In this document: piece by piece, positions 7,620 to 28,454 of the stretch
Layout: the number at the start of each line of letters is the position of its first letter
How positions within the stretch are numbered: position 1 is the stretch's first letter
NCBI GenBank assembly: GCA_963662625.1
Contig: OY759726.1
Span: 1,537,446 to 1,569,445 of the forward strand
Direction of reading: 5' to 3'
Length of the DNA stretch: 32,000 bases
DNA from: Nitrosopumilus sp.
GTDB lineage: Archaea > Thermoproteota > Nitrososphaeria > Nitrososphaerales > Nitrosopumilaceae
Notes under the pieces: generated by a model
Databases searched by the model: none
Told to the model about the DNA's origin: nothing
What the model saw: only the letters and a program-made list of their open reading frames with translations
Position numbers and translations under genes: made by a program

Positions 7620-8522
7620 ATGCCTGTGCTGCCCAAATACTGGCAACTCATGGTGCCGGTCTTGAGAATCTGCGCAAGCAGGCAAGAATGCCATCGACGC
7701 GAACTGCCGGGCATCCTCGCAGATCAATTCGGGCTGACAGACGAGGAACGCGGCCAGCTCAAACCCAGCGGAGGCCAGACATTGCTTGACAACAGGATCG
7801 GCTGGGCCGTATTCTACATGAAAAAGGCGGGCCTCGTGCGCAGCGAGAAGGGGGCCGTCTCCATAACCGACGAGGGTAGGAAGACGCTGGAAGAAAACCC
7901 GGAAGGCATTGACAGGAAATACCTGATGACAGTCCCCCGGTACCGGGAGTACCACGACAGCATGACGGGTAGGCGGGGAAAGCGCGCGGACGACGAGGGT
8001 GCCGAGATTTCAGAACAGACGCCTGAGGACATGCTCCGGTCCGGCCACGGGATGATCAGGCGAACCGTCGAAAGCGAACTGCTGGAGAAAATCAAGAAAA
8101 ACACGCCCAGCTTCTTTGAGACGCTGGTGCTGGAATTGATCAGAAAGATGGGGTACGGGATTGACCACAGGGTGCTGGGCAGAACCCGCGACGGCGGGAT
8201 CGACGGGGTCATCCGGGAGGACAGGCTCGGCTTCAACGAGATTTACTTTCAGGCAAAAAGATGGGATTCCACCGTCCCGATTCACCAAGTAAGGGACTTC
8301 GCGGGGGCTTTGCTGAGCAAAAAGTCCAAGAAGGGGATATTCATCACGTCGTCTGACTTCTCAAAGGACGCGTACGAGTTCGTGAAAACTATCGACTCGA
8401 AGATCATCCTAGTCAACGGGGACAAGCTTGCCGAGTACATGTATGAATGCGATCTGGGGGTCAGCGTGGAGGACGCCTTTGAGATAAAGAAGGTCGACGA
8501 GGATTACTTCTCAGACGGCTGA
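7620..8522 (+). CDS. mrr: Mrr-family type IV restriction endonuclease (Mrr_N winged helix + Mrr catalytic PD-(D/E)xK domain)
   Basis: 300-aa ORF. The N-terminal part (LPKYWQLMVPVLR..LLDNRIGWAVFYMKKAGLV) resembles the Mrr N-terminal wHTH. The C-terminal part has FETLVLELIRKMGYG, DGGIDGVI and EIYFQAKRW (D...QxK catalytic pattern), then KGIFITSSDFS. Confidence 0.85.
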   Translation: MPVLPKYWQLMVPVLRICASRQECHRRELPGILADQFGLTDEERGQLKPSGGQTLLDNRIGWAVFYMKKAGLVRSEKGAVSITDEGRKTLEENPEGIDRKYLMTVPRYREYHDSMTGRRGKRADDEGAEISEQTPEDMLRSGHGMIRRTVESELLEKIKKNTPSFFETLVLELIRKMGYGIDHRVLGRTRDGGIDGVIREDRLGFNEIYFQAKRWDSTVPIHQVRDFAGALLSKKSKKGIFITSSDFSKDAYEFVKTIDSKIILVNGDKLAEYMYECDLGVSVEDAFEIKKVDEDYFSDG

Positions 8523-11410: not shown

Positions 11411-13219
11411 TTGACCGTCCCCGATCTCGGGCAGTCCCGCCCCGACCCCGCCATGCCGAAGACCGACTGGTCCCGGGCCGAGGAGGCCGACAACTTTGCC
11501 CGCACCGTGAAGATGTTCCGCCAGGGCGGGTACGACGAGGACAGCTTCCGCAGGTTCAGGCTGCAGCACGGCGCGTACGGCACCAGGATGACCGGCGACT
11601 ACGCCATGGTGCGGATAAAGCTTCCCGCCGGCGAGGTGTACCCGCACCAGCTGGAGAAGATCGCCCAGCTCAGCGAGCAGTTCTCGATAGGCAGCGCCCA
11701 CGTCTCGACGCGCGAGAACGTCCAGCTGCACTGGGTGGTGCTCGAGGACGTCTCGGAGGTGTTCCGCGGCCTGGCCGAGGTCGGGCTCACGTCCAGGGAG
11801 GCGTGCGGGAACTCCGTGCGCAACGTGATGTGCAGCCCGCTGTCCGGCGTGTGCCGCGCCGAGGCGTTCGACTCCACGCCCTACGCGCTCGCCACCGCCA
11901 GGTTCTTCCTGAGGAACCCGATGGCGCAGAACCTGCCCCGGAAGTTCAAGTTCAACTTCACGTGCTGCGAGGAGCACGGCATGGCCAGGATGACCGACGT
12001 CGGACTGGTCCCCCACGTCGAGGGCGACGGCGGCGCCGCCCGGAGGGGGTTCAGGGTGTTCCTCGGCGGGGGGCTCGGGAACAAGTCCTTCGTGGGCCAC
12101 CAGCTGGAGGACTTTACCAGCGAGGACGACCTGCTGCACACGTCGATCGCCGTGCTGAGGATATTCGACAGGCTGGGCGACAGGAAGAACATGGCGCGCA
12201 ACAGGATGCGGTACCTCGTCCACGACATGGGGTGGGACAAGTTCCGGAACCTCGTGCTCAAGGAGCGGGCCATAGTCAGGGCGACGCAGTCGGTGGTGAC
12301 GCGGCTGTCCGTGGACCTGGAGCCGGCCGCGATAAGGAGGCCGGTCCGGGTGTCGGACGGGGGGCCGGCGGCCGCCCCCGACGGCTACGCCAGGTGGCTG
12401 CGGTCCAACACCGTCGAGCAGAGGCAGCCGGGCTACCGCTCGGCGTTCGTGGCGCTGGAGGCCGGCGACGTCACGGCGAGCCAGCTGGTGGCGCTCGCGG
12501 GGGCGGTGAGGGACTATTCCCACGAGGGCCGCGCCCGCACGGGCTTCAACCAGAACATCGCGCTGCGCCACGTCCACGAGGACGACCTGCCGGGCCTGTA
12601 CTCGGCGCTGCTGCGGGCCGGCCTGGCAAAGTCCGGCGCGCTGACGATGTCCTCGCCGATAGGCTGCTCGGGCACCACCTCGTGCAACCTGGCGCTGACC
12701 AACTCGCACCGGCTGGCGAAGGAAATCCAGCGCAAGTTCCTGGAGCTGAAGCTCGACGAGGACGGCGACCTGGACGGCTCCTCCATAAAGATAAGCGGGT
12801 GCCCCAACTCGTGCGGCCAGCACGGGATCGCCACGATCGGGTTCTTCGGCGGCGGCGCCAGGATGGGCAAGGACATGTACCCCAACTACCAGATGTCGCT
12901 CGGCGGGCGCTCCGACGGCGGCACGATGCTGGGCGTCACGTGCATGCGCGTGCCGGCAAAGAGGGTGATACCCGTGATACTGAAGATCATCGAGACGTTC
13001 AGGCAGAACAGGGGGGAGGGCGACACGCTCAGGGACTGGATCCACAGGGTCGTCACGGGCCACGAGGGCCCGCCGGTGGCGTCGGTGGCCGACCTCAAGG
13101 GGATCCTGGCGCCGCTCGCCGCCCCGCCGGCGATCGACGAGGATCCCGACTTTTACGCCGACTACGGCGCCGACACCAGCTACCACACGAAGACCGGAAA
13201 GGGCGAATGCGCGGCTTGA
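11411..13219 (+). CDS. sir: Sulfite (or nitrite) reductase hemoprotein, ferredoxin-dependent siroheme/[4Fe-4S] type
   Basis: 602-aa ORF with NIR_SIR ferredoxin-like and siroheme-binding halves. Cys clusters SREACGNSVRNVMCSP and GCPNSCGQHGIATIGF. Alternative start at ATG 11453 (MPKTDW..). Confidence 0.88.
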   Translation: MTVPDLGQSRPDPAMPKTDWSRAEEADNFARTVKMFRQGGYDEDSFRRFRLQHGAYGTRMTGDYAMVRIKLPAGEVYPHQLEKIAQLSEQFSIGSAHVSTRENVQLHWVVLEDVSEVFRGLAEVGLTSREACGNSVRNVMCSPLSGVCRAEAFDSTPYALATARFFLRNPMAQNLPRKFKFNFTCCEEHGMARMTDVGLVPHVEGDGGAARRGFRVFLGGGLGNKSFVGHQLEDFTSEDDLLHTSIAVLRIFDRLGDRKNMARNRMRYLVHDMGWDKFRNLVLKERAIVRATQSVVTRLSVDLEPAAIRRPVRVSDGGPAAAPDGYARWLRSNTVEQRQPGYRSAFVALEAGDVTASQLVALAGAVRDYSHEGRARTGFNQNIALRHVHEDDLPGLYSALLRAGLAKSGALTMSSPIGCSGTTSCNLALTNSHRLAKEIQRKFLELKLDEDGDLDGSSIKISGCPNSCGQHGIATIGFFGGGARMGKDMYPNYQMSLGGRSDGGTMLGVTCMRVPAKRVIPVILKIIETFRQNRGEGDTLRDWIHRVVTGHEGPPVASVADLKGILAPLAAPPAIDEDPDFYADYGADTSYHTKTGKGECAA

Positions 13220-14019
13220 GCCGGGGAATGACAGCCAAGCCCACCGCGGACGTCGACTCCGTGCGCTCCGCCGCGCGGGACGGGAGCGTGCGGGTGGTGG
13301 ACGTCAGGAGGGAGGATGACTACCGGCGCGGCCACATCCCCACCGCGGTGAACCTGCCGCTCGCGTCGCTGCTCGCCGACGACAGCACCGACAGCGTCCT
13401 GGGGATGGTCAACTCGGCGGGGATCGGCGACGAGACCCCGGTGGTGGTGTACGACGACACCTTCGGCGCGCTGGCGTCCAGGATGGCGTGGACGCTGGAG
13501 TACCTGGGGCACTCCGACGTCTCCCTGCTGGAGACCACGTACGGCCAGTGGAAGTCGCTCGGGCTGGAGAGCGACGACGCCGTCCCCGAAGTCAGGGAGG
13601 AGCGCCACTCCGTCAGCCTGCGGCCGGGCATACTGGCCACGCACGAGTACCTCGACTCGGCGAGGGCCCGGGACGGCGTCGTGCTGCTGGACAACAGGGA
13701 GAGGCTGAACTACCTCGAGCAGCACATACCCGGGGCGGTCAGCCTGCCGTACCGGACCCTGGCGTCGGCGGGCAGGGTGCTGCGCCCGCGGGCCGACATG
13801 AGGCGGCTGCTCGAGAACCGCGGGATAGGGCCGGGCTCCGAGGTGATCACCTACTGCGGCAGCGTCGGCACCCTGTCGGGGCTGGCGTACTACGCGCTGC
13901 GGCAGGCGGGGCTGCGCGACGTGAGGCTCTACGTGAGGTCCTTCAGGGAGTGGAAGGGCCTGGCAAAGCCCACGGCGAGGCAGGAGGACGCCAGCTACTG
14001 GGACCTGTCGGCCGAGTAG
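13207..14019 (+). CDS. Tandem-rhodanese sulfurtransferase (thiosulfate/3-mercaptopyruvate sulfurtransferase-like)
   Basis: Real gene is the tail of track ORF 11803..14019. It has two rhodanese modules (VVDVRREDDYRRGHIPTAVNLP.. and LLDNRERLNYLEQHIPGAVSLPY) and an active-site loop YCGSVGT. ATG 13207 overlaps the sir stop by 13 bp. ATG 13228 is the alternative start. Confidence 0.85.
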   Translation: MRGLSRGMTAKPTADVDSVRSAARDGSVRVVDVRREDDYRRGHIPTAVNLPLASLLADDSTDSVLGMVNSAGIGDETPVVVYDDTFGALASRMAWTLEYLGHSDVSLLETTYGQWKSLGLESDDAVPEVREERHSVSLRPGILATHEYLDSARARDGVVLLDNRERLNYLEQHIPGAVSLPYRTLASAGRVLRPRADMRRLLENRGIGPGSEVITYCGSVGTLSGLAYYALRQAGLRDVRLYVRSFREWKGLAKPTARQEDASYWDLSAE

Positions 14020-15135: not shown

Positions 15136-15151
15136 TAGGTAAAAGCTGACG

Positions 15152-15167
15152 ATTTATCTAGATAAAT
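15152..15167. promoter_or_regulatory. Perfect 16-bp AT-rich palindrome ATTTATCTAGATAAAT; candidate bidirectional TATA element between the TPR gene and the collagen-like gene
   Basis: Self-complementary by inspection. Its centre lies about 25 bp upstream of the TPR GTG (15135), which fits leaderless spacing, and about 90-125 bp upstream of the collagen-like gene starts. Confidence 0.4.
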
Positions 15168-15251
15168 ACTATCCCCAACGGGTGCCTGCTGCCCGGGAGG
15201 CGGCCGCGCCTGCCCGGGGAGGGGCGGGGCGCCGGGACGGGGGGCGATCTG

Positions 15252-17345
15252 TTGAAAATACAGAAATACCTGAAATTTGCATACATGCTTATGTCCTCGC
15301 CACAGCTGCGCGTCAGGGGGCCGGCCCCGTCCAGAAAGTCCGGCGTATACGAGGTGGAGATCGCCCTTGCGGGCTCCAGGCCGTCAGACGGCGCCATAAA
15401 AGCCAAGGGCTTCCGGCCCCTGTGGAAGGGTTCGTTCCACCTGCGCGTGAGCGACGGGACGTTCTCCGAGGTCCTCGGGTCAGGCGACAACCCGATCCCG
15501 CCTTCCGTCGGGCAGGCGCCGGAGGTCTGGGTGGTGGTGTCAGACGTCCTTTCCCCGGCATATTCCGTTTTCAGCGCGCCGACGGGCGCCAAGCCAAAGC
15601 CCGGGCCTGCAGGCGGGCAGGATGGGCGGGATCGGCCCCCCGCCGCGGAGGTGCGCCCGCCGGAGCAGGAACGGCCGGCACCGCCGCCCCCCGCCGCGGA
15701 GGTGCGCCCGCCGGAGCAGGAACGGCCGGCACCGCCGCCCCCCGCCGCGGAGGTGCGCCCGCCGGAGCAGGAACGGCCGGCACCGCCGCCCCCCGCCGCG
15801 GAGGCGCGCCCGCCGGAGCAGGAACGGCCGGCACCGCCGCCCCCCGCCGCGGAGGCGCGCCCGCCGGCGGAAGAGCAGGCGCCTGCCCCCAAGCGCGCCC
15901 AGGAAGGCGCCGGCGAGGGGCCGCCGAGGCGGCAGTCCGGGCGCGCCACAAAGGCAGTCTCAGACGGTGCCGCGCGCCAGGGCGAGAAGGGCCTGGCAGG
16001 AGAACAGGGCCCGCCGGGCGACCGCGGCCCCACGGGCCAGCCCGGACTGCAGGGCGCGCCGGGCCCCAAGGGCTCCCCCGGCCCGCAGGGGCCGCCGGGC
16101 GACCGCGGCCCCGCGGGCCACCCGGGAATGCAGGGCCAGCAGGGCCCCAAGGGCCAGCCTGGAGAGCAGGGCCCTCCCGGGGACCGGGGATCGGTGGGGG
16201 AGCGCGGGCCGTCCGGCGACAAGGGAGCCCCGGGCCCCACCGGGATTACCGGCGACAAGGGGGACAAGGGGGACAAGGGCCTGACCGGCCCGCCCGGAGA
16301 CAAGGGGGACAAGGGACTCCACGGCGCGCCCGGAGACAAGGGGGACAAGGGGATCACCGGCCCCCCGGGAGAGAAGGGCCAGCAGGGCCCGAGGGGCCCG
16401 CCCGGCGACAAGGGGATGACGGGCGCCCCGGGAGACAAGGGCCCGGCCGGCGACCGGGGGCCGGCGGGGGAGAAGGGCCCCACGGGACATGCCGGAGTCC
16501 AGGGCGAGAAGGGCATATCGGGCAAGCCCGGCCCGCAGGGCGAGAAGGGCAACCAGGGCCCCCCCGGCGACAAGGGCCACGCGGGCATGCAGGGCCCCCC
16601 CGGCGACAAGGGGCCGGCGGGAGCCAAGGGCCCCCCCGGCGACAAGGGAATGCGCGGCCCGCAGGGCCAGGTCGGTGAAAAGGGATCCAAGGGCCAGGAG
16701 GGCCCGGTGGGAGAGAAGGGCCCGCAGGGACTGCAGGGGCCCGCCGGCGAGAAGGGCCTGACCGGGGTACCCGGCCCGCAGGGCGAGAAGGGCCCGCAGG
16801 GGTCGCAGGGGCCCGCCGGCGAGAAGGGCCTGACCGGGGTGCCCGGCCCGCAGGGCGAGAAGGGCCCGCAGGGGTCGCAGGGGCCCGCCGGCGAGAAGGG
16901 CCTGACCGGGGTCCCGGGACCTTCCGGCGGGAAGGGCGAGACGGGGCCGGTGGGCCCGCCAGGAAGCAAGGGCCCCGCAGGCCAGGTCGGGCCCGCGGGG
17001 GACAAGGGGCCCAAGGGCCCGGCCGGCCCGCAGGGCGAGCGGGGCCCGGCCGGCCCGGCAGGAGAGAAGGGCCCGCAGGGCCCGCAGGGGATCCAGGGCC
17101 CGCAGGGCGAGCGCGGCCCGGTGGGCCCGGCCGGCCCCGCGGGGGAGCAGGGCCTGCAGGGAAACCAGGGCCCGGTGGGCCCGGCGGGGCCCAGGGGGCC
17201 GCCCGGGCCGCCCGGCGAGAAGGGCGCGGGCGGGGGGATGCCCGCGGAGCAGAAGGCGCTGCTCAAGGACCTGCTGGAGATTCTCACCGACAAGAACGTC
17301 ATCACGACGGAGGAGCAGATCAAGCTCATGAGCAACCTGTACTAG
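15252..17345 (+). CDS. Collagen-like triple-helix-repeat protein (N-terminal unique domain, Pro-rich 17-aa repeats, 139 G-X-Y triplets, short helical C-terminal tail)
   Basis: 697-aa ORF (TTG 15252; alternative ATG 15285). Hand-checked uninterrupted G-X-Y run from 15981 to 17231 ([19 protein letters not shown]...[12 protein letters not shown]), rich in GEK/GDK/GER/GDR and GPP/GPQ triplets. C-terminus is [35 protein letters not shown]. No obvious signal peptide or TM segment. Confidence 0.9.
15636..15866 (+). repeat. 51-bp tandem repeat, about 4.5 copies, encoding PPAAE(V/A)[11 protein letters not shown]
   Basis: Exact 51-bp periodicity: ccgccgcgga recurs at 15640 and 15691, and so on. Copies 1-3 carry GTG (Val) and copies 4-5 carry GCG (Ala). 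The last copy decays into [10 protein letters not shown]. Confidence 0.9.
16713..16921 (+). repeat. 72-bp tandem repeat, about 2.9 copies, inside the collagen domain ([24 protein letters not shown])
   Basis: ccgccggcgagaagggcctgaccgggg recurs at 16741, 16813 and 16885. The copies differ almost only at a Val wobble position (gta/gtg/gtc). Confidence 0.9.
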
Positions 17346-17358
17346 GAGGGCATGCGGG

Positions 17359-17643
17359 ATGAGCGAAAACAGGGAAAAGATCGAGTTCGAGATGCTGGAC
17401 TACAGGAGGCTCGAGAACGACTTCGTGGCATTCGAGCTGGAGGACGGGACGGTGGTCAAGGTCAAGGTCGACCTGGACAGGGTCGGGAAGGCAGTGAACT
17501 TTACGAACCCCGACGGCACGCCGCACTACGCGATCAACACGGCGGTCAAGCTCTCCATAATGCCGCCCGGCAAGAGGTTCACGGTGCACAAGAACTCCGC
17601 CAAGGGTAAGAACCCGCACCCCCCGGACCAGATGTTCAGCTAG
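17359..17643 (+). CDS. Small hypothetical protein co-oriented with, and 14 bp downstream of, the collagen-like gene
   Basis: 94-aa ORF with ATG start and protein-like composition (MSENREKIEFEMLDYRRLENDFVAFELEDGTVVKVKVDLDRVGKAVNFTNPDGTPHYAINTAVKLSIMPPGKRF..). No family recognised. Confidence 0.6.
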   Translation: MSENREKIEFEMLDYRRLENDFVAFELEDGTVVKVKVDLDRVGKAVNFTNPDGTPHYAINTAVKLSIMPPGKRFTVHKNSAKGKNPHPPDQMFS

Positions 17644-17661: not shown

Positions 17662-18771
17662 TCACACGCCCCGGGTCTTGACTATGGTCAGCACGTCCTC
17701 GTCCTGGAGCACGTGGTCCAGGCCGACGCGCTGCCCGCCGAACTTGACGCTCTTCCCCCAGACCATGCCGTACCTGAACTCCCTCCTCATCCTCCTGTGC
17801 AGCTTGTTGCAGATGTCCTCCACGCTGTCGCCCTCGCGCGCTATCAGCGGCTCCTCGTAGTCCGTCTCCCCCCCCTTGGGCCTCATGTACACCCTGATGA
17901 AGTTGAGCTTCTCGTAGATCTTCTCCTTGAGCAGGCCTATGTTGGTGTTGGAGTTCGCCGAGACCTCCACGACGTCGGTCGCCAGCTTCGACCTCAGGTC
18001 CTCTAGGAACCCCTCGTCCACCAGGTCGATCTTGTTGAGGACGGTCAGCGCCTTGGAGTAGCTCACGTTCCCGGCGATGTGGTCCGCCAGCTGCTCCGAG
18101 GTGACGTCCTCCCTGATCACCACCCTGGCGCTCACTATCCCGTAAAGGTGCAGGATGTCCTTGAGGTGCTTCTCGGTGATCCTCTCCATCCGCGCCTGCT
18201 GGGCCACGGCGATCCCGCCCATCGCGGCCTTCTCGATCGTGATGTTCGGGGGCAGCTGGTTCAGCCTGATCCCTATGTTTCCCAGCTCGGTCACCAGCAC
18301 GCCCTCGTGGTACGGCTGGAAGACGTCCAGGACCAGCAGCACCAGGTCCGCGCTCCTGGCCACCGACAGTATCCTCTTGCCCAGGCCCTTCCCGGTGGAG
18401 GCGCCCTTGATTATCCCCGGCAGGTCCAGAACCTGTATCCTGGCCCCCTTGTACTCCATCATGCCTGGCACCACCGTCAGCGTGGTGAACTGGAACGCCC
18501 CCACGGCGGACTTTGCGTCCGTCAGCCTGTTGAGCAGCGTCGACTTGCCGACGCTCGGGAGGCCGATGAACACGACCGTCGCGTCGCCCGACCGCCTCAC
18601 GTCGAAGCCGTCCGACTTTGCGCCGCCCTTCTTCGCCTCCCTGTCCTCCTGCTCGCGCTTGAGCTTCGCGATCTTCGCCTTGAGGAGCCCTATGTGGTGC
18701 TCCGTGGCCTTGTTCAGCTGCGTCTTCGCCATCTCGTCCTGGATGGCCTTGATCTTCTCGGGGATCCCCAT
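17662..18771 (-). CDS. DRG-family (Obg-like) GTP-binding protein with C-terminal TGS domain
   Basis: Real start is the internal ATG at 18771 (MGIPEKIKAIQDEMAKTQLNKATEHHIGLLKAKIAKL). G motifs: GLPSVGKSTLL (G1), FTT (G2), DLPG (G3), NKID (G4). The TGS-like end is GDSVEDICNKLH..VWGKSVKFGGQRVGLDHVLQDEDVLTIV. The upstream 63 codons of the track ORF are GC-shadow. An A/T-rich box (aaaaaaaataatacc) lies 30-40 bp upstream. Confidence 0.92.
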   Translation of the reverse strand: MGIPEKIKAIQDEMAKTQLNKATEHHIGLLKAKIAKLKREQEDREAKKGGAKSDGFDVRRSGDATVVFIGLPSVGKSTLLNRLTDAKSAVGAFQFTTLTVVPGMMEYKGARIQVLDLPGIIKGASTGKGLGKRILSVARSADLVLLVLDVFQPYHEGVLVTELGNIGIRLNQLPPNITIEKAAMGGIAVAQQARMERITEKHLKDILHLYGIVSARVVIREDVTSEQLADHIAGNVSYSKALTVLNKIDLVDEGFLEDLRSKLATDVVEVSANSNTNIGLLKEKIYEKLNFIRVYMRPKGGETDYEEPLIAREGDSVEDICNKLHRRMRREFRYGMVWGKSVKFGGQRVGLDHVLQDEDVLTIVKTRGV

Positions 18772-19170
18772 GTCGTCCTCTCCGTATTCGTTTTCCCGTG
18801 CGGTATTATTTTTTTTGATTGCCGCGGCCTTCCCAGGAGCGCCCAGCTGGTGCCCCGGCGGGGGTTCCCGCGGCACCCCGCAGCCAAACACGCGTGACGT
18901 GGCGCCTGGCGCGGAGCGCAGAACCCGTGATCCTGCGCACGAAACCGGCCTTGCCTGCAAGCCAGCGCGGGCATGCGGGGCCCAGTGTCATGCACCCGTT
19001 CGCCACAATGCGCCGGATCGCAACGCATCGCCCAAGGACGCGCGCATCGTTCCTGTGCCTGGCGCGCGCAGGCTCCCTCCGGCAGAGCCCGCCGTACCGT
19101 TCCGTTACGTGCATGTTCGCCGCCACGCAGAGCTTCCGGCCCCGCCGGCCAGCCCCAGCCGTTACGGGAC

Positions 19171-19278
19171 GCGCAGCTGCCGTATTGCCGCACCAGCCAT
19201 GTGGCCCGTCCACCAGGCTCTGAATCTGGGGTGCTATCCTAATGCGCAGCTGCCGTATTGCCGCACCAGCCATGTGGC
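19171..19278 (+). repeat. Two identical 35-bp direct repeats (gcgcagctgccgtattgccgcaccagccatgtggc) separated by 38 bp
   Basis: Copies at 19171-19205 and 19244-19278 are identical by inspection. They lie in a roughly 700-bp GC-rich stretch (18.83-19.56 kb) with no convincing ORF. No third copy: at 19316 only a 10-nt core (ccgcaccagc) recurs. Confidence 0.85.
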
Positions 19279-19507
19279 AGCATGCCGCCCCGGGAATGGC
19301 CTTGGACGCCACGTCCCGCACCAGCTCGTCACAGGGGCGTCCGCGCCCCGCAGTGCCGCTTATCCCCTTGGCCGATCTGGCGCATCACGTCACCTGGCTG
19401 CCGTAGGCGGCAGCTGGGATCTGGCCGCGGCGGTTGGAACGATGCCCGGATCCGGCGCGGACAGGCGCCTCGGATGGGAGATCCGTCCGGCAGCCGCGCA
19501 ATCCCGC

Positions 19508-21125
19508 TTACGTCAAAAGCAGGAATGCCGAGGCCGGGACTACGTATTCCTGCCTTGTCTCTAGGCGTGACTTTGAGATAACCAGCCCGCTTTTGGCGCC
19601 GGTCTTGCCAAGGAAGCTGGCCAGCCCTGCCATCTCCCTGGGGTTGATCCTCCCCCTGTATTTCACCTCGATTGGGACCTCCATGCCGTTTACTTTAGAC
19701 AGGACAAAGTCCACCTCCCTTTTTTTTCGTCCTTCCAGTAGAATACGTGGTTGGAATGGTCAAATGTCTGTTTTTTGTCACTCAGTGCAAAGGCCCACCC
19801 GTTCAGGTGATCTGCCATGATGCCCTCCACGATCTTGCCCCGGTTGCCCTCATCGTGGACGTATTCCAAGCTGGCATCAAAGCTGCCATCCGTGCTTATC
19901 AGGCCATTGAATATGTGCAAAAAATAGGGGTCGCTAAAGTAGATTTTTCTGTCGCTTCTCGCCATCGGTATTTTCCTGCCCCCGCCATACCTGCAAATGG
20001 TTGACAAGACAAACAAGTCCTTTAGGGCATGCGCATAACCAAGAGCTGTGTTTGGGCTACCCAGATCTGCCTCTTTGGAAAGGTTATTCCACGACGTATG
20101 GCTTCCCTGGCTTTTGATTACGGCCCCGCAAAACTGCTTTAGCATAGTCTCGCTTTTTGAAAGTGCGTTCCATTCGCCTGTAATCCCCTCCAAATGACTC
20201 GTATACAGGCTTTCGCCTATGGCAGGTGCCTTGATCTTTTCGTCTACCACCCTTGGAGTTCCCCCGGCCAGCATGTATTCTTCCAAGAGTCCGCCTAGTT
20301 CATTTTGGCATGCGCAAAAGGTGTCCAAGGTCTCGCCAATTTCCCCGCTCAGCAGTTTCATGAATATGTCCTTTCTGTGATCCAAGGCAGGCACGTGATT
20401 TTCCATAACTAAATCATTGATGTCGCTACTCGCCACCGATGCATACTCTGCAAACTTCATCGGGAGTAAAATCTTGTCGTAATTGTCGGCAACCCTGCCC
20501 CTGCGGCCTGGCAGTCTTTCTGCGGCATTTCTTATGTTGATTGCCTGTGATCCAGTGGCCATGACTGTGCAATTTTTTAACTTGTCGCCGTCAATTAGCC
20601 ACTTGATGCCTTTCTGCCATTCAGGCACTGATGAAACCCACCCAAGAATAGGCAGCAACGATTATCCTTGCGCTGCCTGGAACTTATTCTCAGGTAGGTT
20701 TCAATAACATCAACCACGTCCTGCCGCGTACTGGCTAGATCCAGTGCATAGTATAGAACGTTCCACGGAGAGACATTCTTGTCCAACAAATCCCCTATCT
20801 GCAATTTAACCAGAGTTGTTTTGCCTACTTGCCTTGGGCCACGAAGTGAATACACCACAGTATTGGAGGGTTCAAAATCAAAAGTAACATTGTGTTTGAG
20901 CCTGGGAATGTATCTTATTGCCGAGTCTCCCCATCCCTTGATTTTCGGGTCATTTTTTATGCTTGCAGGATCTTTCCACCAAGGATTCGAATCCCGTACT
21001 TCCTTTCTCGAGTCATATTTATGTTGACTGAAAGGTTCTTTATATATTGGGCACAAAACCACTGAAATGTCCTTTATATATTGGTCGCGAACCCACTGAA
21101 AGGTCCTTTGTATAATACGGCCCAA
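19508..21125 (-). pseudogene. AAA+ ATPase of the archaeal AAA_14/DUF4143 (COG1373-like) type, disrupted by at least 2 frameshifts
   Basis: Three consecutive ORFs (20595..21125, 19690..20658, 19508..19714) together reproduce the family layout: NPWW N-terminus, Walker A GPRQVGKTTL, then ..SSVPEWQKGIKWLIDG.., TGSQAINI, LPMKFAEY, ..KIYFSDPYFL.., and a C-terminal nuclease-like EVDFVL..PIEVKY. Shift 1 (about 20635-20645) falls where Walker B is expected, and the sequence there reads LFLGG instead of hhhhDE. Shift 2 is in the A8 run (T8 on the plus strand, 19720-19727). No clean in-frame start follows the last TATA-like box. Confidence 0.8.
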
Positions 21126-21128
21126 GCG
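21027..21128. repeat. 34-bp tandem repeat x3, each unit carrying a TATA-like box, at the 5' end of the ATPase pseudogene
   Basis: Units are 21027-21060 actgaaaggttctttatatattgggcacaaaacc, 21061-21094 actgaaatgtcctttatatattggtcgcgaaccc (29/34 identical to unit 1), and 21095-21128 actgaaaggtcctttgtataatacggcccaagcg (more diverged). The period is not a multiple of 3. Confidence 0.85.
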
Positions 21129-21233
21129 TCCAGCGCCAGTCCAGTGGACACGACTGGCGCAAGATCGGCCCCGACATCCTTTCGCCCTGCAGTACTTGTT
21201 CGGGGCGCATCCGGCACCTTGGCTGATCCCTTT

Positions 21234-21944
21234 TCACGGCCAAGACCTGCGTGGGTTTGCAATACGTATGCCCCGAGAAGGGTTCCAGCACCCGCGGATT
21301 CCCCGGCCGGCCATCACCGGCACTCGCCCTGACTGTTTTGCCACATCTCGGGTTGTTCTCTGGTGCTTCTGAATGCTGCCAACTGACCTGCGTGGGAGCC
21401 GGCGGCCTTTCCCAAACTGTAGCATACGCAAGAGCCCCGCAAGCAGGTTGGTTGGCAGATCTAGCCATGAACTGGACTTGAGTGATGCCACAAGCCGCTT
21501 AAAACTGGCGTAGCCTTGCAGTTTTTCGCAGTCCAGCCTTTCTGCATATCTGGGCAACTGGTTCTTTGTGTAGTTCTTATGGTGCCTTAGGGCGTCTGAT
21601 GGTTTCTGGTCACCAAACCGGATGCCTTCTGAATGGCATATCCATTCTTCTATCTCGTGGTCCAGCAGTACCACTTTGACGAACTCTTTATCCTCGTCTT
21701 TAACATGTTTGAGCACTTTCTTCATCTTCTCTTCAAGGCTTTCGCCATCCGCATCCGCAATCACTATGGCCCGATCCACCTTTCCCACGTTTGCGCTAAT
21801 CATCCTGCCCATCTTGCTTCCTATTGGACAGCGAATAACGCGTTCCAGCCTGCCGCCAAGAACCCCCTCGGAATTCTTTTTATGGAAAAACCTTGGAAAA
21901 AACACCTGGCCAAAGCAGTCTTCTACCAGAAAACAGAGTTTCAT
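21234..21944 (-). CDS. Small TOPRIM-like protein (DUF4276/RloB/AriB-like by motif pattern), partner of the upstream ATPase; C-terminal ~80 codons probably non-native read-through
   Basis: ATG 21944 overlaps the ATPase stop (ATGA). The N-terminal strand plus acidic residue MKLCFLVED, the DxD motif in AIVIADADGES, and later LLDHEIEEW follow the E...DxD TOPRIM order. AT-rich coding composition ends near 21480 (..FKRLVASLKSSS). The ORF then runs on in GC-rich sequence with Arg/Gly-rich, non-protein-like translation to 21234. Confidence 0.6.
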   Translation of the reverse strand: MKLCFLVEDCFGQVFFPRFFHKKNSEGVLGGRLERVIRCPIGSKMGRMISANVGKVDRAIVIADADGESLEEKMKKVLKHVKDEDKEFVKVVLLDHEIEEWICHSEGIRFGDQKPSDALRHHKNYTKNQLPRYAERLDCEKLQGYASFKRLVASLKSSSWLDLPTNLLAGLLRMLQFGKGRRLPRRSVGSIQKHQRTTRDVAKQSGRVPVMAGRGIRGCWNPSRGIRIANPRRSWP

Positions 21945-23248
21945 AACTCACCATACAGCCACGATTCGCTAGCAGTAATGCCCTTGCTTTGTAATTCTTT
22001 TCTCAGTTCGCCTGGATTTTCAACCTTGCGGCATGTGCTTTCCTCCTTGTTCGTTTCCAACAGAACCAAGTCGCCAATATCGACATAATCTACGACAAGT
22101 GGCGAATGACTCGTGACTATCACGGTGGATTCTGTGTTTTTTAACAAATCCACAACGTATTCTATAATCCTCGCGTGCAGTGATGTCTCTATCTCGTCAA
22201 TCAGAATAATCCTTGGTTTCAGTTCAATGGCTGCAAGAATTGCCAGTAACTTGTAAAACCCATCGGGTATGGAGGTTGGGGCAAGTGTCATCGTGCCCAC
22301 ATTTACTTCCATTATTATGTTTCCCTCTTGAGTAATTTGGAATGATATCTGCCAGTTGGGAAACAACGCTTCAAGTGCAAGTGTGAAGATATCAGGAAGC
22401 TTACGTTTTTCGTTAAACCATTTGAACAACAAGTTTACCAAACCGTCTCCGTCCTCATCTAGCTCGTCAGAATAGTTGACGGGAGTTGATTTACGCAGGT
22501 AATCATAGTTTAATTGCCTTAGCAGGATGATGTTTCGTGGATCAACCAGATAGCTTGCAGCTAGCGCATACAGTGATCTAGCAATCCTGTTATTTTTGAT
22601 GGGGGGTGACGGAAAACTGTACACTTTCAGCTCGTCGCCATCAAACATGCCAGCTCGTAGCAGAAAAATGGCAGTTTTCCCCATGCGTTCGTGCCACTTT
22701 GTGGCGTTGAGAATAGACACGTCGCTGTCATTATGTGGCACCGTGAAGCCTTTTTCCAAATCAATCGAATCCCTCTCCAGTATTCGCCTAAGCCGTGTTT
22801 TTTCGCCAACGGAGTTGACTTCCTTGATGATGGGAGGCTTGAAGTGATAGCCGACCTTGTTAACATCAAGCGCCACGTCTAGGTAATCTTCAATCTGTAT
22901 TCTCTCTTCGAGTATCCCCAACCGGCCGTTGTTTGAGCCCGTTACCGTAAAGTCATAAATGACGTTGCGGCCGTCCACAACATAACTGATCTGCGAGTGG
23001 ATCGTCTCGGATTCGTCACCTCTCCACACTATGTTTCGGTACCCTCCCCAGTCCGCAAAAGGATATGCGGGAGTCTTTTGCGGCGACACGCATAAATTCA
23101 CAAATTTAATCAGCTCAAGCACGTTTGTCTTGCCGGACCCGTTTGGCCCAATCAGCACGTTGAATTGCTTGAGCGGGATCTCGAAATCCTTCAGGCTCTT
23201 GAACCTTTTAACCTTGATCTTGGTGAGCGTCTCCATATTGACAAGCAT
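21941..23248 (-). CDS. ABC-type (AAA_21/AAA_15-like, SMC/RecF-fold) ATPase
   Basis: 435-aa ORF. Motifs: KRFKSLKDFEIPLKQFNVLIGPNGSGKTNVLE (Walker A), signature-like SIPDGFYKLLAILAAIE, Walker B RIILIDEIETSLH, H-loop VIVTSHSP. A TATA-like element (catttatattg on the coding strand) lies about 20-25 bp upstream of the ATG. Markedly AT-rich relative to the core genes. Confidence 0.85.
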   Translation of the reverse strand: MLVNMETLTKIKVKRFKSLKDFEIPLKQFNVLIGPNGSGKTNVLELIKFVNLCVSPQKTPAYPFADWGGYRNIVWRGDESETIHSQISYVVDGRNVIYDFTVTGSNNGRLGILEERIQIEDYLDVALDVNKVGYHFKPPIIKEVNSVGEKTRLRRILERDSIDLEKGFTVPHNDSDVSILNATKWHERMGKTAIFLLRAGMFDGDELKVYSFPSPPIKNNRIARSLYALAASYLVDPRNIILLRQLNYDYLRKSTPVNYSDELDEDGDGLVNLLFKWFNEKRKLPDIFTLALEALFPNWQISFQITQEGNIIMEVNVGTMTLAPTSIPDGFYKLLAILAAIELKPRIILIDEIETSLHARIIEYVVDLLKNTESTVIVTSHSPLVVDYVDIGDLVLLETNKEESTCRKVENPGELRKELQSKGITASESWLYGEL

Positions 23249-23480
23249 CCTGATCTGTTTTCAATATAAATGGAAAACGTCGTTGCCGGCGTTGTAAAGT
23301 TTTGTTGATATAAAAAACGCCAGCGTTGCCGGACCGCGCCGTCCGGCAGGCCGGCCGTGTGCCCGGAAGCCGAGTCCGTGTGCGTGTGCAGGCTGCCGGG
23401 GCCGGACGGGGTTGGCAGCCGCGCGCGGGGCCGCCCGCAGTCATTAAATACCGGCGCGCGCCACTTAACCCATGCCAAGC

Positions 23481-23603
23481 ATGAAATGTACCGCGTGCGG
23501 GATCAGCTTCTTCTCGCCCACGGGCTCGGACAGGTGCTCGAGGTGCGTCCCGAAGGCGGAGCACGCCGGGCACGGCTCCTGCGGCTGCGGCCACGGGCAC
23601 TGA
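23481..23603 (+). CDS. Possible 40-aa zinc-ribbon micro-protein with Cys/His-rich tail
   Basis: Hand translation gives MKCTACGISFFSPTGSDRCSRCVPKAEHAGHGSCGCGHGH* (CxxC-x12-CxxC plus an H/C tail). A TATA-like attaaata (23443-23450) lies about 35 bp upstream. The ORF is below the track length cut-off and convergent with argS. Confidence 0.4.
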   Translation: MKCTACGISFFSPTGSDRCSRCVPKAEHAGHGSCGCGHGH

Positions 23604-26208: not shown

Positions 26209-26403
26209 GATCCGGTACCCAGGAGCCGAATAATATTTGCTACGCATGCCGCCGGCAGCGTGCGCCAGGCGGGCGCGGCGCCGCCCCGGCGCAAACCCAG
26301 ATCCCAGTTGGATTCATGCCTACTGGGGCAACGGCCACGCTGATTTTGTGCCTATGGCGCCATGGGATCTGAGCATGCACGTAGGGCCTACCCATTAAAT
26401 TTT

Positions 26404-27363
26404 TTAAGCGTTACTTGGTTGAGGCGGTCCGACATAATCGGCGACGAATTTTTCAACTTCTGCGAGGTGGCTTAAACAGAACACGCGGCCGTTGCCTGGG
26501 ACATCATAAAACTGCTCCTGCCTGTCAGAAGTAAAATACATTAATTTATCGTATGGGATATTTGCCGCTTGCAAATTTTTGATTTTGCGATTAATTACTT
26601 CAAGAATGTTAGAGCTGTCTCCCTGCTTGGTGACTTCTGCAAGAATTAAGCGTTTATCTGTAGTTACGGCGATCACATCAATTTCTAAACCGGGTCGAAT
26701 TTCGCCGTTTTCGTACATTTGAATTTTTTTATGAACATATATCTTTTCAATAAAATCTAATTTTGCTAACGCAAACCCAATGAACACTTCATAAATCCAA
26801 CTGCTGTCAAAAACTAATAGCCCTTCTAATATCTTGGGATAATTAACATCGATTTTATGTATAACGCCCTTGCCTCCGCACAGCTTACATTCAGAAATCA
26901 AGTCCAATTTCTGAATACGGGACACCTGGTAGCTAAACGGCAGTTGGTTATGTTCGTACCAGCAATCAAGGCACTTGGATTCGATAGATAAAGTAACATG
27001 TTTGGCTAACTTACCCAGCGCCGTCGAAATTTGTTGCTTCTGATCAGGCAATTTCAAGAATTTGTTGCTCATGGAAATGGAGTTTTGTCTTGCTTTTTTG
27101 GATAAACTCGCATATTTTTCCACATCAGCTAGGATCTGATGTTCGTAGGCATATTCACTAAATGTCTGATACGTATCGGTGTTAATGTCTTCTAATTTTT
27201 GATTATCTTTCAGAGCTTTTTGAACACTATCTGTAAAATCATCAAAAGTGGACGTTCTTGATTTTAACACGCGTGAAACTTCAGAATTTGAAGATATGGT
27301 ATCAAAAGTGGCAGAAAAGATATTTTTCCATACTTCAAAAATTTCCTTTTGGTGTATGCTCAT
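26404..27363 (-). CDS. Hypothetical protein: helical N-domain + CxxC..CxxC zinc ribbon + PD-(D/E)xK nuclease-like C-domain
   Basis: AT-rich ORF. Likely ATG at 27363 (MSIHQKEIFEVW..); the track ORF extends to 27453 into GC-rich sequence. Zn ribbon: SKCLDCWYEH-x17-SECKLCGGKG. Nuclease-like order: E in SSWIYEVFIGF, D in GLEIDVIAV, ExK in LILAEVTKQ. Confidence 0.65.
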   Translation of the reverse strand: MSIHQKEIFEVWKNIFSATFDTISSNSEVSRVLKSRTSTFDDFTDSVQKALKDNQKLEDINTDTYQTFSEYAYEHQILADVEKYASLSKKARQNSISMSNKFLKLPDQKQQISTALGKLAKHVTLSIESKCLDCWYEHNQLPFSYQVSRIQKLDLISECKLCGGKGVIHKIDVNYPKILEGLLVFDSSWIYEVFIGFALAKLDFIEKIYVHKKIQMYENGEIRPGLEIDVIAVTTDKRLILAEVTKQGDSSNILEVINRKIKNLQAANIPYDKLMYFTSDRQEQFYDVPGNGRVFCLSHLAEVEKFVADYVGPPQPSNA

Positions 27364-27455
27364 TCGTTTCTCTAGAGTGACGCTCACAAATAATTTCTCC
27401 CCTGGGAGGTCGCACTGCAGAAAAGCCTGTTGATCGCCGGATCGCCGAACCATCC

Positions 27456-28454
27456 ATGGACGAGACCGACAGGAAACTACGGGACCTGACGGAGGCCATG
27501 CGCGCAGGGAGGGACGCCAGGATCCGCAACAGGACGGTGGCAGTGCGCGGGGTGCCCGGCGGATACCCCGCGAGTGACGCCGCGTACTTTGCGGACGCGG
27601 GACAGCGCACCGTCCGCCTGCGGGCGGGACGGCCCGGCGACGGCGGCGCCGGCGGCCTCCGGGACATTCCCGGCAGGGGAAGGAACCCGCGCGTCCGGTA
27701 CGGCCCCATGGGCGGGCCTGCAGGCAGGCCCGGCCGCACGGGCATGCCCGCGCCGGGGAGGCCCCGCGACGGGACGCGCCGGAAGCCCGGGCGCGCGCAC
27801 GGCCCGCGCGGCGCGCGCGGGATCACGGGGGAACCGGGGCTCTCCCCCAAGGGGCCCACGACAGGTTACGCCGCGGCCGCAGACGACGACACGGTGCGGC
27901 GGCGGCGGGCCGACGCGGCAGGCGCGGTTGCGTGCGCAAGGAGGCGCAAGACGGCGACAGTCGCGCAGGACGGGCCCGCCTCCGCCGGGACGGGAACCGA
28001 CGGCAGGAGGCTCTGGTCCCGCGCAGGGGAGGGGGCCGCCGCCGGCAGGCCCGGCAGGAGGGACAGGGCAGCCGCGTGCGGCTCCCCCGCGGCCGACGGG
28101 ACGGGGCCGGTGCGGCCGTGCGGCAGGTCCGGCGGGGACACCTTCCTGACGTACCCCAGGGAGATCCGGCGCGAGCGGGGGCGCGCGCTGGTGATAACGG
28201 GCAACGCGGGGCAGCACAGGGCGGCGGACGTGAGGGAATACCTGCGGGACCACCGAGAGATCGGGGTGCCGTGCCTTCCCACCGCCACGCCGAAGCCCAG
28301 CGCGGTCGAGGCCGTGTGGAAGGAGGCAAAGTACGGGCTGGTCACGTCAAGGCACTACGAGACGCTGGATGGACTGAAGCGTGCGGTCTCGGAGTATTTC
28401 AGGACGTGCCCGATCAGGGTGGACATCTACAAGTTCCTATACCGTTCCATCTGA
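27456..28454 (+). pseudogene. IS630-family-like transposase remnant (N-terminal HTH and C-terminal DDE_3-like tail retained, catalytic core degenerate)
   Basis: The C-terminus ..RALVITGNAGQHRAADVREYLRDHREIGVPCLPTATPKPSAVEAVWKEAKYGLVTSRHYETLDGLKRAVSEYF matches the IS630 pattern vlDNa..H....v..fl......l.fLP.ysPeLNpiE..W...K, but with D->G in the DNA motif. The N-terminus has an HTH-like segment. The middle ~170 aa is Gly/Pro/Arg low complexity with no DDE residues recognisable. The ORF is GC-rich, unlike the AT-rich DNA on both sides. Confidence 0.6.

Follow-up and report, generated by a model that had tools for sequence, protein, structure and literature searches.

The window analysed here is a stretch of 32,000 nucleotides (nt) from Nitrosopumilus sp. 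(GenBank assembly GCA_963662625.1, contig OY759726.1, forward-strand positions 1,537,446 to 1,569,445), and it contains a gene for a collagen-like protein of 686 amino acids (aa). This protein consists of a 100-aa N-terminal domain (N-domain), a 132-aa proline-rich spacer, a rod of 140 G-X-Y triplets and a C-terminal tail of 34 aa with two predicted helices; all coordinates of the gene and its parts (Table 1) are positions of the window. The protein belongs to a collagen-rod family that, as judged from sequence comparison and gene order, is vertically inherited and syntenic across the Nitrosopumilaceae, and the copy in the window has been expanded in its own lineage, so that its rod exceeds the family mode by 16 triplets and its spacer is longer than any other. 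The reading that appears reasonably probable is that of a structural protein built as head, spacer, rod and knot, whose homotrimeric rod would be assembled in the cytoplasm and serve as a spacer or tether of fixed length, rather than that of a secreted adhesin.

Sixty complete orthologs share a single design, which consists of an N-domain of approximately 100 aa, a spacer, between 109 and 163 triplets without interruption (median 123, mode 124) and the tail. When the N-domain alignment was scanned against one genome per species, 190 encoding stretches were recovered, and record titles were assessed for the best 80. All but one of these 80 are titled Nitrosopumilus, Nitrosarchaeum, Candidatus (Ca.) Nitrosomaritimum, Nitrosopumilaceae or Nitrosopumilales, or are unplaced thaumarchaeote or archaeal records, the sole exception (L038) lying within an alphaproteobacterial bin. 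Many of them stem from seawater, sediment or groundwater. Orthologs alike in architecture and gene order were recorded from Crystal Geyser filtrate, groundwater (Nitrosarchaeum), Gulf of Mexico water, Baltic plankton and the enrichment culture N. salarius BD31, and further family members in Nitrosotenuis and N. limnium BG20 emerged from protein searches. A sequence-only reading of the window had called such proteins rare in archaea, which is misleading, as the protein is the rule within the Nitrosopumilaceae. The family is described in no paper of the literature searched.

The conservation of the gene extends to its surroundings. The order NIR_SIR reductase, rhodanese, divergently transcribed tetratricopeptide repeat (TPR) protein, collagen gene and GTPase, present in the window, recurs among 82 loci, with the divergent TPR neighbour in 80, the rhodanese in 76 and the NIR_SIR gene in 75. 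Three of the neighbouring proteins in the window are 69-90% identical to proteins encoded in the same order in metagenome-assembled genomes of Nitrosopumilaceae, which places the source of the window in this family. A Tara scaffold with a G+C content of 43-46% (L001), located through a cluster mate of the window TPR protein, encodes a syntenic collagen-like protein of 553 aa, whose N-domain is homologous, whose rod has 125 triplets and whose tail is nearly the same, and its TPR and GTPase proteins are 90% identical to those of the window. The G+C content of the window is approximately 65%, far above the 36% that is the median among the related loci. Since the identity of neighbouring proteins nevertheless reaches 90% with genomes of only 42-46% G+C (L001 and L081 were compared), a strong and fairly recent compositional shift is implied for the window lineage.

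In public collections the family is represented almost entirely by fragments. Of the 82 loci, 22 are truncated inside the gene, where short-read assemblies break; nearly all public family proteins are pieces of 24-181 aa, and gene callers often give only a 35-aa tail beginning at its own methionine. The labels attached to these entries include "collagen-like protein, partial", "hypothetical" and "integrin beta 3/collagen type V/XI". By exact look-up, the window protein itself is absent from the protein collection under either of its candidate starts.

The mechanically called open reading frame (ORF) spans 15252..17345 on the plus strand and begins with the TTG at 15252, which the sequence-only reading had listed as one candidate start. 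However, the translation start is most likely the ATG at 15285 (or that at 15291), because the orthologs begin at the aligned position and because a TATA-like, AT-rich island fills 15252-15284. An ORF of 725 aa is also open on the opposite strand of the gene, and it had been considered as the possible expressed product. In one low-GC ortholog the antisense frames are broken into pieces of at most 76 aa, while the ratio of nonsynonymous to synonymous substitution rates (dN/dS) in the collagen domain is 0.09-0.27 for 14 ortholog pairs of equal length. The plus-strand protein is therefore the product under selection, and the antisense frame is a by-product of GC-rich collagen codons.

The rod is an unambiguous collagen domain. 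The Pfam Collagen profile (PF01391) matches it with E=1.8e-66 and 220 bits, against a cutoff of 27.2, and the chance of 140 glycines falling in register, even if glycine is given a frequency of 0.33, is of the order of 1e-67. The strict periodicity and the triplet composition described in the sequence-only reading both stand, the commonest triplets being counted here as GPA 15, GEK 14, GDK 14, GPP 12 and GPQ 12, while its count of 139 triplets ending at 17231 becomes 140 ending at 17240, a final GGM triplet having been added. If triple-helical, at the 0.286 nm per residue of collagen triple-helix geometry, the rod would measure approximately 120 nm in the window copy and approximately 106 nm at 124 triplets.

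The strongest constraint is found at the C-terminal end. When 61 proteins were aligned from the C-terminus, the end of the rod, a 13-residue clamp followed by -xx-GGM, proved invariant or nearly so, and conservation at the X and Y positions was 0.72-0.88 across the last 50 triplets, compared to about 55% in the N-terminal half of the rod. The tail that follows does not vary in length, measuring 34 aa in all 60 orthologs, and has a mean major-residue frequency of 0.90 over the 61 proteins; the window tail is 60-80% identical to those of the family. In an AlphaFold2 (AF2) model built from 54 homologs, it forms a helical hairpin with helices of 16 and 11 residues and a predicted local distance difference test (pLDDT) score of 89-98 over the helices. 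A profile search with the tail returned only fragments of the Nitrosopumilaceae collagen family, and a sequence search against the Protein Data Bank (PDB) returned nothing. On the strength of the model, the tail is a putative trimerisation knot, and the suggestion made from the sequence that this amphipathic segment could trimerise the chains has gained a good candidate, with two predicted helices and approximately 90% conservation. By analogy with other collagens, the imino-acid-rich, 13-residue clamp beside it would be the putative nucleation site of the triple helix. What one would look for in a nucleator, namely a short non-collagen helical segment of invariable length with the triplets that most favour the triple helix (GPR-GPP-GPP) immediately before it, is precisely what is most strongly constrained in the family.

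At the opposite end, the N-domain is modelled by AF2 from an alignment of 121 sequences as a beta sandwich of seven strands, with a mean pLDDT of 84.4 and values of about 85-95 for residues 11-100. The folded part is therefore about 100 aa in length, rather than the approximately 125 aa first proposed. The window N-domain is unusually diverged, being 42-58% identical to 23 orthologs against a mean column identity of 69% within the family, and it nonetheless keeps all 22 invariant columns, including the motifs G..P...SG.YE, W..FHLRV, NP.P and W...D.FS. Neither the N-domain nor the tail has a match in Pfam, NCBIfam, PHROG or PADLOC; the N-domain fold has no significant structural neighbour in the PDB or among viral structures, and a sequence search of the PDB with its profile found nothing. 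In an exhaustive profile search of 1.84 billion proteins, carriers of the N-domain amounted to only 69 cluster representatives.

Two of these carriers place the N-domain in a different protein altogether. In the first (P0153, L083:8001-13304), it forms the N-terminus of a 1767-aa helicase-nuclease in which TPRs and DUF4011, AAA_11, AAA_12 and MTES_1575 domains follow, and which matches PADLOC PDC-S37 at 3.5e-192. The gene lies in a transposase-rich island of a 2.47-Mb archaeal genome, with IS66 and DDE transposases on either side, and the N-domain is thus an uncharacterised N-terminal module of a candidate defence protein, a PDC-S37/Hhe-like helicase-nuclease. In the second (P0147, L084:6001-8949), residues 678-824 of a 982-aa membrane protein form the N-domain; this protein has a signal peptide, extracellular repeats and a single transmembrane helix with a KIRKTKKEK flank, after which the N-domain lies in the predicted cytoplasmic part. 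The gene for the membrane protein adjoins two-component-system genes. The TPR region of the helicase fusion was also considered as a "Rosetta stone" link to the TPR neighbour of the collagen gene, and was discarded as a generic likeness only (28% identity).

The spacer is the least conserved part of the protein. With 132 aa, that of the window exceeds those of the orthologs (21-83 aa), which are rich in Ser, Thr, Lys, Pro and Glu, often include PETK tandem repeats and show no sequence conservation. Tandem Repeats Finder (TRF) confirms the near-identical 51-bp and 72-bp repeats already visible in the sequence, in 4.6 and 3.0 copies respectively, the exact copy numbers of both remaining subject to assembly error. 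The 51-bp unit, with 99% matches, has three identical copies and a fourth that differs by a single T>C change (V>A), and its 17-aa product is confined to the window lineage, being absent from all 60 complete orthologs. The 72-bp unit is an expansion of an eight-triplet motif conserved in the family, and it exactly explains the difference between 140 triplets and the mode of 124. The proposal that these repeats expanded recently is borne out by the closest relatives (L001 and L081), which have a single copy of the 24-aa unit and no proline-rich 17-mers. Since another relative (L003) has independently reached 140 triplets by triplication of a different eight-triplet unit, the family changes the length of its rod by in-frame duplication of 72-bp units.

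No signal peptide, transmembrane segment, LPXTG, PGF or twin-arginine motif was found by hydropathy and motif search in any of the 61 proteins, and the only transmembrane-like stretch in the window protein (19 aa) is a beta strand of the N-domain. The lack of an obvious secretion signal, which had been noted as a puzzle, is thus a property of the whole family and not a quirk of the window copy. The proteins are also essentially free of cysteine (61 of 61). Because export and anchoring signals are absent and the N-domain is reused in two predicted cytoplasmic contexts, cytoplasmic assembly is favoured, by a modest preponderance and from sequence features, over a location at the cell surface.

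The mechanism that may be proposed on this basis begins at the C-terminus. The 34-aa, two-helix tails would bring three chains into register, the GPR-GPP-GPP triplets beside them would nucleate the helix, and the helix would then zip from C to N into a single uninterrupted triple helix. This direction is that of collagen folding in general, which nucleates at the C-terminus and propagates to the N-terminus, with charged pairs contributing stability (PMC11923368). The disordered spacer, expanded in the window copy, would carry three beta-sandwich N-domains as docking heads for a partner, and the rod, most likely produced and put together inside the cytoplasm, would serve as a stiff tether or spacer whose length is fixed. 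The conservation of both rod length and the X and Y residues in its C-terminal half suggests that a defined geometry, or specific binding sites, is maintained, and not merely a variable adhesin stalk. The structural proposal of the sequence-only reading, a triple helix with a flanking trimerisation element, is a reasonable one. A more specific version, in which a rod of approximately 106 nm is an intracellular strut or tether whose heads dock on a target in the cytoplasm or close to the membrane, while its tail may be bound by the TPR protein, is rather unlikely. Such a rod would span roughly half the width of a cell, and no counterpart of such an intracellular structural collagen is known to have been described in prokaryotes.

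Several observations weigh against cytoplasmic assembly and favour a fibre or nap at the surface, in which trimeric rods would be exported without a signal peptide onto or through the S-layer, as in BclA, and would stabilise the envelope or mediate attachment. To our knowledge, every characterised prokaryotic collagen-like protein is located at the surface, whether in the cell wall, the outer membrane, the exosporium or the virion, and BclA likewise lacks a signal peptide. In their richness in Ser, Thr, Pro, Lys and Glu, the spacers are reminiscent of glycosylated stalks on the surface proteins of archaea. Other points count against the proposed mechanism: the helicase fusion is known from one cluster only, the topology of the 982-aa membrane protein was predicted by eye only, the window copy contains just five KGD/KGE motifs, and a conserved gene order inside a single family says little about whether the TPR gene is functionally connected. 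The best NCBIfam matches are to adhesins: the Scl1/Scl2 models (NF038329 and NF038330) score 231 against a cutoff of 325 (SclB, the best match) and 172 against 400, and the Legionella Lcl model (NF046116) scores 214 against 500. Furthermore, in the cultured Ca. Nitrosotenuis chungbukensis a collagen-like protein described as an LPXTG-anchored adhesin is transcribed, is found in the proteome and was grouped with surface genes induced at low salinity (PMC13037477). This protein is likely a member of the family, and the label is the one that an annotation pipeline would be expected to assign to the family, since SclB is its top NCBIfam match, though below the cutoff. Yet all these NCBIfam scores fall far under the curated cutoffs and arise from the G-X-Y part only, and no signal peptide, transmembrane segment, LPXTG or PGF-CTERM signal accompanies the rod in any of the 61 proteins. 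That the N-domain recurs on a helicase-nuclease and, in a membrane protein, on the side predicted to face the cytoplasm also speaks against export, and a rod of 106 nm is much longer than the archaeal pseudo-periplasm. A surface fibre is therefore possible but doubtful.

Three further explanations were weighed. That the gene is derived from a virus, as a domesticated fibre, or belongs to a defence system in which the N-domain senses viral components, is improbable: its best PHROG matches are indeed to tail-fibre families, and the N-domain is fused to the helicase-nuclease in its mobile island, but the PHROG matches span the G-X-Y region only and include neither N-domain nor tail, no relative of the N-domain occurs in 2.9 million IMG/VR contigs, no viral fold resembles it, and the collagen gene, under strong purifying selection and of conserved length, lies in a stable housekeeping neighbourhood and not in an island. 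The sequence-only reading had instead proposed a eukaryote-like protein of a sponge symbiont, which would adhere to or mimic the collagen matrix of its host and in which the adjacent TPR gene would belong to a symbiosis toolkit. Among relatives, a very high G+C content has been reported only for thaumarchaea from sponges, such as Ca. Cenporiarchaeum stylissum with 66% (PMC6697440), and the composition of the window, at approximately 65%, fits them, while it excludes Ca. Cenarchaeum massiliensis (37%) as the source; the window copy also carries lineage-specific expansions, and the relative with the most similar N-domain (L003), whose host association is guessed from its isolate name only, is independently expanded. 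A host-associated source is thus plausible for the window lineage. Host mimicry is contradicted as an account of the family and is very improbable, as the same gene, architecture and synteny are found in an enrichment culture and in records with titles suggestive of free-living plankton, groundwater and sediment lineages, long rods of 139-163 triplets are also known where nothing in the record indicates a host, and the family shows neither the enrichment in, or restriction to, host-associated lineages expected of eukaryote-like proteins of symbionts nor a recognisable export signal. Similarly, the TPR gene is no symbiont-type marker, being a constant neighbour, at 71-90% identity, in 80 of the 82 loci, whose habitats include plankton and groundwater.

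The possibility that the gene is an artefact, whether through mis-assembly, contamination by host collagen or an antisense ORF that is the real gene, can practically be set aside. GC-rich repeats are prone to mis-assembly, the truncated loci and database entries described above all break within this gene, and the antisense frame is open in the window. However, the gene is embedded in an archaeal contig of 1.86 Mb, its 60 complete syntenic orthologs include chromosome-level assemblies at 36-61% G+C, and its flanking domains are specific to archaea; orthologs of low G+C content have interruptions in the antisense frame, and dN/dS in the plus frame is well under 1. Only the exact repeat copy numbers are exempt from this verdict.

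Comparison with known collagen-like systems shows in which respects the family resembles them and in which it does not. The streptococcal adhesins Scl1 and Scl2 (SclA and SclB) also possess an uninterrupted, charged and proline-rich G-X-Y rod without hydroxyproline, a non-collagen domain thought to trimerise, and a length that varies by repeat number. Unlike the window protein, they have a signal peptide, a helical V domain as N-terminal trimeriser and a C-terminal LPXTG anchor; the candidate trimeriser of the window protein is instead a C-terminal hairpin of 34 aa. BclA, from the nap of the Bacillus exosporium, likewise lacks a signal peptide, places a short N-terminal targeting part before a rod of variable repeats, and is assembled in the cytoplasm onto a structure as a head-and-stalk filament, a course that the window protein may share. 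Nevertheless, BclA trimerises by a C-terminal beta-jellyroll of the C1q/TNF type and has glycosylated, GPT-rich repeats and a highly polymorphic rod, whereas the Nitrosopumilaceae family has a globular beta sandwich at its N-terminus, a two-helix tail at its C-terminus and a rod conserved at approximately 124 triplets.

In animals, the NC2-type domains of fibril-associated collagens with interrupted triple helices (FACITs) and the (GPP)n ends of fibrillar collagens likewise place a short helical segment beside the triple helix and imino-rich triplets at its C-terminus, in keeping with folding that zips from C to N (PMC11923368). The trimerisers of animal collagens have no sequence relationship and no detectable fold relationship to the tail, and the likeness is one of analogy only. 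Collagen fibres of phages and giant viruses are also made in the cytoplasm without signal peptides, and PHROG matches reach 6.9e-90, but the flanks of the window protein are absent from PHROGs, BFVD and IMG/VR, and its gene is chromosomal, syntenic and family-wide. The protein is of a known kind, that of the prokaryotic collagen-like proteins, but differs from the others in its syntenic orthology across a whole family, its lack of sorting signals, its conserved rod length and sequence, its new N-terminal fold family and its new C-terminal helical knot.

Two further observations concern the sequence of the rod itself. QGP is among the commonest Y-G-X triplets, making up 9.4% of those in the window copy and 7.0% across the family, and it has been reported as anomalously frequent in archaeal collagen-like proteins (PMC11923368); the Nitrosopumilaceae family may be the source of this excess. 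A D-like fibril stagger was sought by a Hulmes-type autocorrelation of charged and hydrophobic residues and was rejected, since only a 12-residue (36-bp) periodicity emerged, with z-scores inflated by sequence relatedness.

The divergent TPR protein shows Pfam matches to TPR_1/TPR_2 (E=1e-23) and weak winged-helix matches to TrmB (1.3e-3), Sta1 (1.4e-4) and Lrs14, and its C-terminal half found nothing in a sequence search of the PDB. That it regulates the collagen gene or binds the collagen tail is speculation. Between the two genes, AT-rich, TATA-like islands lie at about 15150-15175 (TPR gene) and 15252-15284 (collagen gene), approximately 25-35 nt upstream of the start codons, and from their sequence probably act as promoters. 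Between the islands is a GC-rich, partly palindromic core at 15176-15251 (CCCGGGAGGCGGCCGCGCCTGCCCGGG…), which may, by its sequence, be an operator site.

Downstream, a GGAGG motif precedes the gene for a conserved 94-aa protein, which is found 10-31 nt past the collagen gene in about 19 loci, with 71-84% identity, and is absent from that position in most others. Its close spacing and the motif suggest that it is probably co-transcribed with the collagen gene in a subset of lineages; searches of Pfam, NCBIfam, PHROG and PADLOC and a sequence search of the PDB gave no match to the protein. Some genomes without this gene instead have, between the collagen gene and the GTPase, a gene for an extremely basic protein of 70 aa rich in Lys, Ala and Arg, with KRKAATKRR… repeats (for example, L008:7770-7982, minus strand). 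Elsewhere in the window, low-GC islands (45-53% against approximately 65-70%) at 7620-8522, 18800-23600 and 26400-28454 hold defence or mobile genes. Comparison with L001 shows that the ArgRS-HAD block is inverted and that the island separating it from the GTPase has been inserted.

Table 1. Features of the collagen-like gene and of its surroundings, in window positions.
Feature	Position	Strand	Basis or remark
Collagen-like protein, coding sequence	15285..17345	+	686 aa from ATG 15285; start by ortholog alignment
N-domain, residues 1-100, seven-strand beta sandwich	15285..15584	+	AF2 model
Pro/Ala/Glu/Arg low-complexity spacer, residues 101-232	15585..15980	+	Longest of the family
51-bp tandem repeat, 4.6 copies, 17-aa unit starting PPAAE(V/A)	15635..15867	+	TRF
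Uninterrupted collagen domain, 140 G-X-Y triplets (420 residues)	15981..17240	+	Translation, Pfam
72-bp tandem repeat, 3 copies of 8-triplet (24-aa) unit	16701..16917	+	TRF, 94% matches
Imino-acid-rich clamp, 13 residues, (nearly) invariant, beside tail	17187..17225	+	C-anchored conservation, 61 proteins
34-aa tail, two amphipathic helices (17244-17291, 17307-17339)	17241..17342	+	AF2, conservation
NIR_SIR reductase	11411-13219	+	Family match
Rhodanese	13222-14019	+	Family match
TPR protein, 371 aa, divergent; four or five TPRs, C-terminal domain of ~120 aa	14020..15135	-	Pfam
Divergent intergenic region between TPR and collagen genes	15136..15284	.	Sequence read directly
Conserved 94-aa protein	17359..17643	+	14 nt downstream of collagen gene
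DRG/TGS GTPase	17662-18771	-	Family match
Mrr restriction endonuclease	7620-8522		Low-GC island
Split AAA_14/DUF4143 ATPase, probably frameshifted	19690-20658 + 20595-21125		Low-GC island
AAA_21 AbiEii-like ATPase	21941-23248		Partner ORF of 236 aa at 21234-21944
DDE_3 transposase	27456-28454		Low-GC island

What is known of collagen-like proteins in prokaryotes concerns mostly surface adhesins of variable length or sequence, from pathogens, spores and phages. For the Nitrosopumilaceae family, labels such as "LPXTG-anchored collagen-like adhesin" and "integrin beta 3/collagen type V" are misnomers, and to read the copies of sponge symbionts as host mimicry would be an over-interpretation. The Nitrosopumilaceae are among the most abundant archaea of the ocean, and a conserved, syntenic family under purifying selection, with novel flanking domains, a rod of conserved length and sequence and no export signal, points to an unrecognised structural component of these ammonia oxidisers. 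Should the rod indeed be an intracellular collagen tether, it would constitute a new cell-biological element in the Nitrosopumilaceae.

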